Source: an uncultured Bacilli bacterium (GTDB taxonomy: Bacteria > Bacillota_I > Bacilli_A > RF39 > UBA660). Taken from it: a stretch of 64,000 bases of DNA. The position numbers and the translations under genes are program-made. The notes beneath the pieces were generated by a model. That model worked only from the letters and a program-made list of their open reading frames with translations. It searched no databases and was not told the origin of the DNA. The DNA is taken from positions 46,719 to 110,718 of the forward strand of contig CAKOIN010000004.1 of the NCBI GenBank assembly GCA_934086955.1. The letters are read 5' to 3'. This document shows, piece after piece, positions 48,657-50,894 of this stretch; positions within the stretch are counted from its first letter, which is position 1, and each line of letters begins with the position of its first letter.

Positions 48657-50894
48657 TTATTGTTTAACTATTATTTTTATTTTAGCATCAAATATTTTTC
48701 CCATATCTACATCTTGATTTTTACCAGTATCTTTAAATTCGAAACTGAATGTCCATTCATAAGTAGTTTTAGCTGGTATAACAACATTTGTAACAATATT
48801 TGTTTCTTTATATGGGGTTCTTGCATTAGTAATAATATTAGTTTTATTTCGCATAACACTATAGTATAAATTGTTAGTTGTAGTAAATGTATTTTTAACA
48901 TCTATCCATTTCATACTTATTGTTTGAGCAGTGTTGGTAGTATTTGTTAATTTGAATTTTTTAATTCCTTTCCATCCAGGAATTATACTAGATGCATCAT
49001 AATCACTTCCAGTAAGAGTAAGTACATACTCATCACCTTCATTTATATTAACATTATCTTCTTTACCATCACAGTTCGTATCACACTTACCATCACCATT
49101 CGTGTCACAATTCTTATCGCAAATTCCATCTCCATCAGTATCACAATTTAAATCACACTTTCCATCTTTGTTATTATCACAATTTAAATCACACTTACCA
49201 TCTTTGTTTGTGTCACAATTTACATCACATTTGCCATCATTATTTGTATCACAATTTATATCACATTTGCCATCTTTATTTGTGTCACAATTTAAATCAC
49301 ATTTGCCATCTTTATCAGTATCACAATTTAAATCGCATTTTCCATCTTTATCAGTATCGCAATTTAAATCACACTTACCATCTTTATTTGTATCACAGTT
49401 TATATCACACTTTCCATCTTTATCAGTATCACAGTTTAAATCACATTTGCCATCTCTATCAGTATCACAATTTAAATCACATTTTCCATCTTTATCAGTA
49501 TCGCAATTTAAATCACACTTACCATCTTTATTTGTGTCACAATTTAAATCGCATTTTCCATCTTTATCAGTATCACAATTTAAGTCACATTTTCCATCTT
49601 TATCAGTATCACAATTTAAGTCACACTTTCCATCATTATTTGTGTCACAGTTTAAGTCACACTTACCATCTTTATCAGTATCACAATTTAAGTCACATTT
49701 ACTATCATTGTTAGTATCGCAGTTTAAATCACATTTACCATCTTTGTTAGTATCACAATTTAAATCGCAGTTTCCATCTCCATCAAGATCAATATTTGTT
49801 TCTGGCCAGCCATCCTTATCTGTATCACAATTTAGATCACACTTTCCATCCTTATCATTATCTTGATTCATTGGATTCCTATCAGGTTTCTTATCATTAT
49901 TTGTATCTTCATTAAAATGTGGTTCTCTATCATCATTATAATCAATGTTTATATCTGGTTTTCCATCATTATTAGTATCACAGTTTATATCACACTTATA
50001 GTCTCCATTTTTATCAATGTTTATATTTGGTTTACCATCATTATCTGTATCACAGTTTATATCACATTTGCCATCTTTATCTAGATCACAATTTAAATCA
50101 CATTTGCCATCTCCATCAAGATCAATATTTATTTCTGGCCATCCGTCTTTATCTGTATCACAATTTAAATCACATTTTCCATCTCCATCATTATCTTGAT
50201 TCATTGGATTCCTATCAGGTTTCTTATCACCATCAGTGTCTTCATTAAAATGTGGCTCCTTATCTTTATTATAATCTATATTAATATCAGGCCTTCCATC
50301 ACCATCTGTATCACAATTTATATTACAAACATTATCTTTATCAGTATCAATATTTAAATCTGGATCCCCATCTTTATCTAAATCACAGTTTAAATCACAT
50401 TTTCCATCTCCATCAAGATCAATATTTATATCTGGTTCTCCATCTCCATCTAAATCAATATTAGTATCAGGCCATCCATCATCATTAGTATCACAGTTCA
50501 AATTACACTTTCCGTCCCCATTTGTATCTTGATTAATCAAATTACTGTCTGGTTTTCCATCTCCATCTGTATCAACATTAAATGTAGGCTTTTTACTACC
50601 ACCATAATCAACATTTAAAAATGGTTTCTTATTATCTTTACTACAATTAACTTTACATTCTTTAGTATCAAAATCTAAATTAATATCAGGTACACCATCA
50701 CCATCAATATCAATATTAAATGACATACCATTATTTTTCTTAATTAATATTCCACTACTAAAAACTATTATAATAATGAATAATAACAATAATAAAAGAA
50801 TAAGCAATCTTTTCTTATGACTTTTCTTTTCTTCTTCATTATTATCTATATTATCAACATTATTTTGATTTACTAAATTACTATTATCTTCCAT
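48657..50894 (-). CDS. Membrane-anchored protein: poly-Leu TM, about 40 tandem thrombospondin type-3-like Ca-binding repeats (D-x-D-x-D-G-K-C-D-L-N-C), C-terminal TasA-like domain
   Basis: 39-nt tandem DNA repeats encoding 'DTDKDGKCDLNCD'; C-terminal 'WTFSFEFKDTGKNQDVDMGKIFDAKIKIIV' parallels the C-termini of 45468 and 44782. Start moved to ATG (MEDNSN) with an AGGAGA RBS. Confidence 0.7.
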   Translation of the reverse strand: MEDNSNLVNQNNVDNIDNNEEEKKSHKKRLLILLLLLLFIIIIVFSSGILIKKNNGMSFNIDIDGDGVPDINLDFDTKECKVNCSKDNKKPFLNVDYGGSKKPTFNVDTDGDGKPDSNLINQDTNGDGKCNLNCDTNDDGWPDTNIDLDGDGEPDINIDLDGDGKCDLNCDLDKDGDPDLNIDTDKDNVCNINCDTDGDGRPDINIDYNKDKEPHFNEDTDGDKKPDRNPMNQDNDGDGKCDLNCDTDKDGWPEINIDLDGDGKCDLNCDLDKDGKCDINCDTDNDGKPNINIDKNGDYKCDINCDTNNDGKPDINIDYNDDREPHFNEDTNNDKKPDRNPMNQDNDKDGKCDLNCDTDKDGWPETNIDLDGDGNCDLNCDTNKDGKCDLNCDTNNDSKCDLNCDTDKDGKCDLNCDTNNDGKCDLNCDTDKDGKCDLNCDTDKDGKCDLNCDTNKDGKCDLNCDTDKDGKCDLNCDTDRDGKCDLNCDTDKDGKCDINCDTNKDGKCDLNCDTDKDGKCDLNCDTDKDGKCDLNCDTNKDGKCDINCDTNNDGKCDVNCDTNKDGKCDLNCDNNKDGKCDLNCDTDGDGICDKNCDTNGDGKCDTNCDGKEDNVNINEGDEYVLTLTGSDYDASSIIPGWKGIKKFKLTNTTNTAQTISMKWIDVKNTFTTTNNLYYSVMRNKTNIITNARTPYKETNIVTNVVIPAKTTYEWTFSFEFKDTGKNQDVDMGKIFDAKIKIIVKQ
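49060..49800 (-). repeat. About 19 head-to-tail 39-nt coding repeats (TSP3-like D-x-D-x-D-G-K-C-D-L-N-C), with more degenerate copies continuing to about 50560
   Basis: Plus strand shows 'tcacaatttaaatcaca(c/t)tt(t/a)ccatctttat(c/t)agta' iterated with 39-nt period. Confidence 0.85.

Follow-up and report, generated by a model that had tools for sequence, protein, structure and literature searches.

What is the purpose of a protein that joins a hydrophobic N-terminal segment, more than 40 tandem acidic repeats and a C-terminal domain resembling the fibre subunits encoded beside it? The question is raised by a gene in the 64,000-nucleotide stretch of DNA analyzed here (contig CAKOIN010000004.1 of an uncultured Bacilli bacterium, positions 46,719 to 110,718; hereafter the window, whose own numbering is used throughout). 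We call the product the stalk protein. Its architecture, its homology to neighboring TasA-like proteins and its conserved association with a SipW-type signal peptidase gene suggest that it is an accessory subunit of a SipW-dependent TasA-superfamily fibre system, tethering and possibly nucleating the fibre. We put the probability of this reading at roughly one half.

An earlier annotation made from the letters alone (the sequence-only reading) had described a membrane anchor, tandem repeats and a TasA-like C-terminal domain. This three-part plan is real, and the extent given for the gene agrees exactly with ours. The enclosing open reading frame (ORF) spans 48657..50948 on the reverse strand; we place the start at ATG 50894, which has an upstream ribosome-binding site (RBS), AGGAG, at 50907..50903, eight nucleotides 5′ of the ATG. 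The gene and its parts are:

48657..50894, reverse strand: whole stalk gene from the ORF list, 745 residues plus the stop codon (48657..48659)

50808..50894, reverse strand: predicted N-terminal cytoplasmic segment, residues 1–29, acidic and then with a basic cluster, EEEKKSHKKR

50742..50807, reverse strand: hydrophobic segment, residues 30–51, Kyte-Doolittle maximum 3.2; a signal-anchor or possibly a SipW-type signal peptide

49059..50717, reverse strand: repeat stalk, residues 60–612, about 42–46 units of 12 residues (36 nt), isoelectric point (pI) 4.05, from Tandem Repeats Finder (TRF), unit parsing and composition

48660..49058, reverse strand: C-terminal TasA-superfamily beta-sandwich domain (C-domain), residues 613–745, without Cys, pI 9.0

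The segment at residues 30–51, LLILLLLLLFIIIIVFSSGILI, is the only hydrophobic one in the protein and has KKSHKKR and KK on its flanks. Neither an LPXTG motif nor an SLH domain is present in the stalk protein.

The C-domain ties this protein to fibre subunits. BLASTP aligns it with two TasA-like proteins encoded nearby, of 197 and 185 residues (E = 2e-6 and 1e-6, respectively), and profile–profile comparison with the subunit gives a probability of 96.7% (E = 4.2e-10 over 119 columns, C-domain residues 13–131 onto subunit residues 54–187). In a search of every window ORF of 50 residues or longer, a hidden Markov model (HMM) of the C-domain matches the two neighbors only (7e-8 and 1.6e-5; next best 0.07), and the HMM of the neighbors has the stalk protein as its sole match (1e-5). 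Judging from these searches, the C-terminal similarity is well beyond chance; the resemblance noted in the sequence-only reading does not vanish on alignment. Modeling the last 223 residues with AlphaFold2 (AF2) extends it to structure: the best match by two methods is the TasA fibre, and the modeled C-domain has a TasA-like jelly-roll beta-sandwich fold. The AF2 model of the 197-residue subunit has as its top Foldseek match the archaeal bundling pilin 7ueg, a weak one (E = 3.9e-3; none ≤1e-3). Neither the stalk protein nor either neighbor matches the PF12389 (Peptidase_M73) HMM, which detects relatives of the neighbors only weakly: 35/48 aligned members of the 197-residue family match this TasA/camelysin model, at best with E = 9.2e-7. 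The label TasA-like for all three proteins is thus supported by fold and a transitive profile link, without a direct Pfam match.

The genes beside the stalk gene are:

45468..46061, reverse strand: 197-residue TasA-like subunit, probably the major one, with the signal/donor-strand region GATFA-WFSISVSGN; 586 homologues

44782..45339, reverse strand: 185-residue TasA-like paralogue, probably a minor subunit; BLASTP against the 197-residue protein E = 2e-21, adjacency kept in 12 species

44157..44771, reverse strand: SipW/archaeal-type signal peptidase I, 204 residues; TIGR02228, 86.3 bits vs. a cut-off of 51.85

46149..48653, forward strand: YfhO-family GT-C glycosyltransferase, PF09586 E = 5.5e-153, between the stalk and subunit genes and convergent with the stalk gene

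The SipW model also matches the peptidase (E = 2.9e-23), yet under its cut-off, and the signal/donor region of the 185-residue paralogue reads GTSYA-YYVKK. The YfhO-family protein has weak similarity to the Streptococcus mutans protein-glycosylation enzymes PgfM1/M2, and may possibly glycosylate the fibre or the stalk.

This gene neighborhood is conserved. A scan of species-representative genomes returned 13 loci (numbered L), all in metagenome-assembled genomes (MAGs), one of them a 1.53-Mb chromosome, and labeled uncultured Clostridium sp., Bacilli, Mollicutes or Mycoplasmatota. In 12/13 of these species-level MAGs the genes run stalk / [yfhO] / 197-like / 185-like / sipW; the remaining locus, L007, is a short contig with the stalk gene only. 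Of the 12 loci in which the downstream genes are visible, 11 have yfhO at this position (broken up in L013). L012 lacks it, and there the other four genes are contiguous on a single strand; it is also missing from that position in two distant loci (L014 and L017). A dedicated SipW-type peptidase gene is found in these 12 loci, as well as in L015 and L017 among the distant ones. The sequence-only reading had proposed a stalk presenting or nucleating a TasA-like fibre: the link to a TasA-type system stands, since sipW and two subunit genes keep their place near the stalk gene, and for the presenting role it is this synteny only that speaks.

The end domain lacks one segment of the subunits. In the subunit, GATFA is followed by WFSISVSGNANASS and then by the hairpin IIVTTAKLG-SVEYTD. 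The stalk C-domain keeps the hairpin, with NVNINEGDEYVLTLT aligned to subunit IIVTTAKLGSVEYTD (strands from the AF2 models). The WFSISVSGNANASS segment has no counterpart; the last repeat occupies the WFSISV position. In TasA, residues 28–38, directly after the SipW cleavage site, serve as donor strand to complete the next subunit, while residues 48–61 self-complement in the monomer (PMC9674648), and by comparison with that structure the WFSISVSGNANASS segment sits where TasA has its donor strand. By analogy with TasA, then, the end domain of the stalk protein should be able to accept a strand and unable to donate one.

Several polar residues of the C-domain (N651, N668, Q727, D730 and K733) are invariant or nearly so among 17 stalk-type proteins of 24–39% identity. 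The conserved set includes an N-Q-x-x-D-x-G-K loop directly ahead of the last strand of the domain, echoed in the subunits as Q-N-A-A-Q-G-K. By analogy with what is reported for AbpX, these residues might bind Ca where the strand meets the groove.

The stalk plan is not unique to close orthologues. When the end-domain profile was searched exhaustively, 767 relatives scored E≤1e-3, and among the best 150 representatives, which we examined for architecture, at least 28 divergent full-length proteins share it: an E-rich and then K/R-rich (KKRR) N-terminus, one hydrophobic segment, a linker of 85–918 residues, and the end domain at the extreme C-terminus. Most of the linkers contain 1–31 DxDxDG-like motifs, while in three relatives (P0216, P0243 and P0261, the last at L019 825..3080) the linker is made of unrelated beta-rich, Cys-containing repeats and reaches 918 residues. 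Since both ends are conserved and the middle is replaceable, the middle apparently acts as a spacer. Linkage is partly kept in three of five distant loci examined (L014, L015 and L017), with L019 too short to judge. L017 has the order subunit-subunit-stalk-sipW on one strand, so that linkage persists to ~26% identity, and L014 has two tandem stalk genes with three subunit genes.

Three side observations concern these relatives. P0216, P0243 and P0261 share an N-terminal cytoplasmic module of ~55 residues (YY(I/V)GK...Y.V(Y/F)DE.G), and P0134 has in its place an N-terminus that is LysM-like by eye. In addition, the deep search returned a 290-residue protein (P0182) in which a type IV pilin-like N-terminus (KGFTLVEIIVSVALISIV) is fused to this same TasA-like C-terminal domain; the C-domain has therefore apparently been mounted on at least two different membrane/assembly modules.

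We propose the following mechanism. The N-terminal hydrophobic helix would insert N-in/C-out and, in this clade, remain as an uncleaved membrane anchor. The array of ~550 residues in D-x-D-x-D-G-x-[C/P]-D-x-N-[C/I] units would form an acidic spacer which, to judge from the motif, probably binds Ca2+; the ions would probably stiffen the array, with Cys or Pro/Ile pairs stapling the units. Varying in length by whole units, the spacer would carry the end domain off the membrane and through the wall. The C-terminal jelly-roll, a subunit paralogue without the N-terminal donor strand and so predicted to be an acceptor-only terminal subunit, would then capture the strand (WFSISVSGN...) donated by the first 197-residue subunit that SipW has processed, as its alignment and the analogy with TasA suggest. 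Later subunits would join by donor-strand exchange, the 185-residue paralogue possibly last. The fibre would thus be tethered to the cell and perhaps nucleated there as well.

Several observations weigh against this proposal. In the window, yfhO on the opposite strand separates the stalk gene from the subunit genes, which leaves them without co-transcription. Among the neighbors compared, L015 has a stalk gene and sipW and no small subunit gene, and L018 has two tandem stalk genes and neither a subunit gene nor sipW. The array itself departs from known calcium-binding loops: position 12 of the loop is Cys (26) or Ile (7), and the acidic ligand found there in EF-hand and thrombospondin type 3 (TSP3) loops is absent. 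The AF2 model of the last 223 residues, in which ions were not modeled, places the approximately seven included repeats at a predicted local distance difference test (pLDDT) score below 50. Finally, many distant relatives have GAT(F/Y)S(Y/F) at the end of the hydrophobic segment, resembling the SipW site of the subunits; given the GATFS-Y(Y/F) of these relatives, cleavage and release are conceivable even for the window protein.

These last sites favor a secreted matrix linker, in which SipW would cleave the hydrophobic segment, the freed N-terminus would act as donor and the C-domain as acceptor. The protein would then be a fibre subunit whose strand and core are separated by a huge spacer, and it would cross-link or space fibres in the matrix instead of anchoring them. 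An HMM built from the signal-plus-donor region of the subunits matches 12/27 distant stalk-type relatives through the GAT(F/Y)S(Y/F) motif (E from 3e-6 to 0.1, above every background ORF), and short aromatic-rich segments directly follow that motif. The pairing of a stalk gene with sipW alone in L015 and the tandem stalk gene pairs in L014 and L018 would also fit. The matches imply that the stalk family probably descended from a SipW-processed subunit that acquired an inserted spacer. The target's own clade looks different: against the same HMM the N-terminus of the window protein scores at noise level (E = 1.7), and 12 close orthologues are unmatched too. By hand alignment, the target and these orthologues have L, Y or F at the −1 cleavage position, where a small residue, Ala or Ser, would be expected, and no SipW-type signal peptide directly before a donor strand is found in the stalk protein. 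Nor would a disposable signal peptide usually carry cytoplasmic extensions such as those seen here, of ~19–50 residues in the target's clade and up to ~80 in distant relatives, where some (P0243, P0261 and P0134) seem to contain a folded domain. Because of the HMM mismatch, the bulky −1 residues and the N-terminal extensions, we favor an uncleaved signal-anchor in the target's clade and regard the secreted linker as rather unlikely. NCBIfam returned no signal-peptide family for the neighbors or the distant stalk proteins; as it misses the subunits themselves, this negative carries no weight.

Less likely still is a stand-alone stalked adhesin, whose C-domain would bind a carbohydrate or host ligand and whose kinship to the subunits would reflect shared ancestry with no joining of fibres. 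Against it, the fibre subunits are the sole best sequence relatives of the C-domain within the window, the TasA fibre is its best structural match, and the linkage to sipW and subunit genes is held as far as L017.

The repeat array bears on the remaining alternatives. TRF gives a period of 36 nt (29.5 copies, 49124..50195), not the 39 nt of the sequence-only reading, where the figure must be a slip because the unit written out there has 12 residues, or 36 nt. Its count of about 40 units holds: between residues 60 and 612 we find 42 motif-anchored units, or 46 segments in 12-residue register. The unit consensus is N-C-D-T-D-K-D-G-K-C-D-L. Two subregions stand out:

49674..50534, reverse strand: higher-order repeat of 333 nt (111 residues), 2.6 copies, mixing Cys-type and Pro/Ile-type units (TRF score 1048)

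49059..49760, reverse strand: homogeneous NCDT(D/N)KDGKCDL array, residues 379–612, from unit parsing; its 19 in-register 36-nt units have a mean pairwise identity of 0.82 (maximum 0.97)

The protein contains 23 strict D-x-D-x-D-G motifs (38 if D/N is tolerated), and 31/42 units combine D/N at loop positions 1, 3, 5 and 9 with G at position 6. Calcium binding is accordingly a motif-level expectation, and the array is best called putatively calcium-binding.

Units come in two flavors, NCD.D.DGKCDL and NID.D.DG.PDI, and the residues flanking D-x-N on either side covary almost perfectly. In the target this linker pair is C...C in 27 cases, the first C only in 0, the second C only in 2 and neither (mostly P...I) in 12 (P = 1e-8, Fisher's exact test); in 19 distant relatives the corresponding counts are 50, 0, 3 and 89 (P = 3e-35). 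Pairing of Cys within one unit (C2–C10) was rejected, with P = 0.07 and 0.22 for the two sets. The covariation therefore indicates that the two Cys of each C-D-L-N-C linker contact each other, as a disulfide or through a shared ligand, and the exchange pattern suggests that a Pro/Ile pair can take over the structural job of the Cys pair.

TSP3 repeats wrap Ca2+ and are disulfide-stapled. Like these and other DxDxDG loops (EF-hand, FG-GAP and Excalibur), the array has tandem D-x-D-x-D-G-x-x-D motifs with nearby Cys. It differs from TSP3 in its strict period of 12 residues, its lack of an acidic position 12 and its i/i+4 linker Cys, swappable for Pro/Ile. As a statement of family membership, the description of the repeats as TSP3-like did not survive: Pfam TSP_3 (PF02412) has no match in the whole protein at E≤0.1 or in three repeat fragments at E≤10, and in the same searches TSP3_bac, Excalibur, dockerin and RTX are without a match. 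Sub-threshold Pfam matches are to EF-hand and FG-GAP, with LNR and Toxin_20 as noise; the EF-hand_1 match (E = 1.4e-4, 21.6 bits vs. a cut-off of 25.4) covers the loop part, profile positions 9–19. NCBIfam matches to staphylococcal SD-repeat adhesins are compositional and far below cut-offs. No Pfam or NCBIfam model reached threshold on the 12-residue repeat, and PDB sequence searches with the stalk protein and with the neighbor profile yielded nothing usable.

A composition of 22% Asp, 14% Asn, 11% Lys and 7.8% Cys, with 161 acidic residues and all 58 Cys of the protein in the repeats, might suggest a metal sink or mineralization protein, its array mainly sequestering Ca2+ or thiophilic metals at the cell surface. 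We consider this very improbable: the free exchange of the Cys pair for Pro/Ile points to a structural staple and not an obligatory metal site, and relatives replace the whole array with unrelated repeats while keeping both ends. It is similarly hard to credit that the repeat number or frame is an artefact of mis-assembled short reads, since, although public gene calls of close relatives are nearly all fragments of 85–219 residues and the L013 copy is broken, the 2.2-kb frame is open and six independent MAG assemblies have intact orthologues of 664–717 residues with the same ends.

Unit-wise length variation among these orthologues is observed directly. Relative to the window protein, array indels are mostly multiples of 12 residues (36, 48, 36, 12, 24, 12, 12 and 60), the exceptions (27 and 39, plus a 4-residue gap at the end of the array) all being in L011. 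Repeat-number variation between species is therefore real.

The repeats nonetheless defeat short-read assembly and gene calling in this family. Gene calls in relatives (P0003, P0006, P0008 and P0009) are often 85-residue stubs for which the internal Met of MKWIDV was taken as the start, and in L013, a complete MAG chromosome, the stalk gene (7547..9372) is in pieces, as is yfhO. Names fare no better. The exact target sequence is absent from the protein collection searched, no stalk-family protein has a curated name, and a cluster look-up of nine relatives was nameless. A word-indexed search gave the same nine fragments whether the query was the C-domain or a 17-sequence alignment, and just one of these, homologue P0007, bore a name, "MSCRAMM family adhesin SdrC". 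We rejected this name, given scores of 115–159 bits vs. cut-offs of 999–2500 (115 vs. 1700 and 159 vs. 999 for SdrC/ClfB-type models): it is a low-complexity artefact. A PF27309 match on P0001 turned out to be a "faint" match to MJ0753_N. The stalk protein thus belongs to a sizeable family lacking annotation, whose genes current pipelines fragment or mislabel as SdrC adhesins.

Comparison with known systems places the proposed anchor among accessory fibre proteins. The locus resembles TasA/TapA/SipW of Bacillus subtilis, where a SipW-type peptidase is encoded with jelly-roll subunits and an accessory fibre-end protein and TasA polymerizes through N-terminal donor-strand exchange (PMC9674648, PMC10151520). 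TapA has been proposed as donor of the first strand (PMC9674648). Compared by architecture, TapA would donate a strand and has no repeat stalk, whereas the end domain of the stalk protein would accept one, giving the opposite polarity. In Clostridium perfringens, also of the Bacillota, sipW shares a locus with two remote TasA homologues, BsaA and BsaB; BsaA polymers are reported to be membrane-anchored, not wall-linked, without a known anchor (PMC11580942). In contrast to our locus, the published description of the bsa operon includes a vWA protein, BsaC, but lists no stalk protein. Two further systems have proposed or predicted anchors: archaeal Tafi pili, where a TafF-like protein with a single membrane helix and a jelly-roll would, by prediction, attach to the fibre through strand complementation (PMC12337348), and bacterial AbpX loci, where SLH/LPXTG wall anchors with a jelly-roll are proposed to anchor fibres (bioRxiv 10.64898/2026.01.04.697558). 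Architecturally, both lack a long Ca-loop repeat spacer, and the stalk protein has no such wall-anchoring signals.

More distant parallels are functional or formal. Staphylococcal Sdr/Clf MSCRAMMs project a terminal domain through the wall on an acidic repeat of variable length, and the SdrD B repeats are Ca-stiffened. The stalk protein would be a functional analogue in having such a wall-spanning repeat, and differs in its N-terminal anchor and in having no LPXTG and no A domain. FimH and PapG are, like the end domain proposed here, acceptor-only end subunits; unlike it, they are components of Gram-negative chaperone-usher pili, where they carry a lectin domain at the distal tip and have no membrane tether. 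Overall, we rate the stalk protein as a variant among accessory/anchor subunits of TasA-superfamily fibres, with a repeat type unrecognized by curated models at threshold.

BsaA also raises the prospect of covalent locking. Its intermolecular isopeptide pair, N35–K74, is spaced by 39 residues, and so are N38 and K77 of the 197-residue subunit, both near-invariant in 48 homologues; isopeptide formation in this family is a speculative conjecture from that spacing. K645 of the stalk protein (48960..48962) aligns with K77, and Lys occupies that column in 14/28 stalk-type relatives. The 185-residue paralogue has Leu there, which would fit a terminal subunit. The pattern suggests a covalently locked arrangement of anchor, major subunit and cap. 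More tentatively, and with doubt outweighing conviction, the stalk family could supply some Bacillota with the missing anchor/initiator for SipW-dependent fibres of the TasA/BsaA type. On this view it presents an acceptor-only jelly-roll on an undescribed calcium-binding 12-residue "wire" stapled by i/i+4 Cys or Pro/Ile pairs, with the unit count fixing the distance from the membrane at which the fibre starts and so serving as a ruler for wall thickness, and a possible BsaA-like Asn–Lys isopeptide lock to the first subunit.

Other features of the window are less directly connected. One adjoins the start of the stalk gene:

50903..50948, reverse strand: possible own promoter and RBS, with TTGAAT, a 17-nt spacer and TG-n-TAGAAT at 50948..50920; weak

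In a promoter/terminator scan, promoter-like sites are not enriched in the AT-rich window DNA (99 vs. 110 expected from shuffles). On the other side of sipW, 42396..44140 (forward strand) encodes a collagen-like GPT-triplet protein of 224 residues, of the exosporium BclA type by eye, and then a 355-residue protein whose orthologue in L016 has Glycos_transf_2 and TPR matches. This gene pair adjoins sipW in several related MAGs.

Two additional S26 signal peptidase loci on the reverse strand bring the window to three dedicated peptidase/substrate clusters in 64 kb. The second, SipW-like locus (28708..32070 and 21370..28701) has its peptidase at 28708..29253 (PF10502, E = 3.7e-6), three proteins (191, 352 and 384 residues) with SipW-substrate-like S(A/S)YAW(M/F) N-termini, and a 2443-residue protein in which long leucine-rich repeats follow an N-terminal helix with AYSWFYNEY at its end. 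The subunit and C-domain HMMs match two proteins of this locus, though only marginally (E = 0.07). The third locus (36224..38596) has a peptidase at 36224..36778 (PF10502, E = 5e-8) with a 364-residue protein containing ASYAWFTEN and a 230-residue protein as neighbors. Between these two loci, at 34886..36133 (reverse strand), lies a 415-residue protein in which DUF285 repeats (E = 3e-37) are fused to an N-terminus of type IV pilin character (KTGFTLVELLAVIAVL; N_methyl, E = 8e-6). An Rfam scan of the window found nothing relevant to the stalk locus; its sole match at the gathering threshold was RF03531, a Clostridioides difficile sRNA, inside a helicase gene (19456..19553, reverse strand; 66.9 vs. 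65.2 bits).

The chief protein scaffold of Bacillus biofilms consists of TasA-type fibres, relatives of which are now known across bacteria and archaea. How such fibres are fixed to the Gram-positive cell is unsettled (compare BsaA, PMC11580942). The strict 12-residue DxDxDG unit with its CxxxC/PxxxI staple could serve as a designable calcium-dependent spacer. For the fibres themselves, a conserved, putatively membrane-tethered paralogue without a donor strand would provide a testable anchor candidate in abundant uncultured gut Bacillota.

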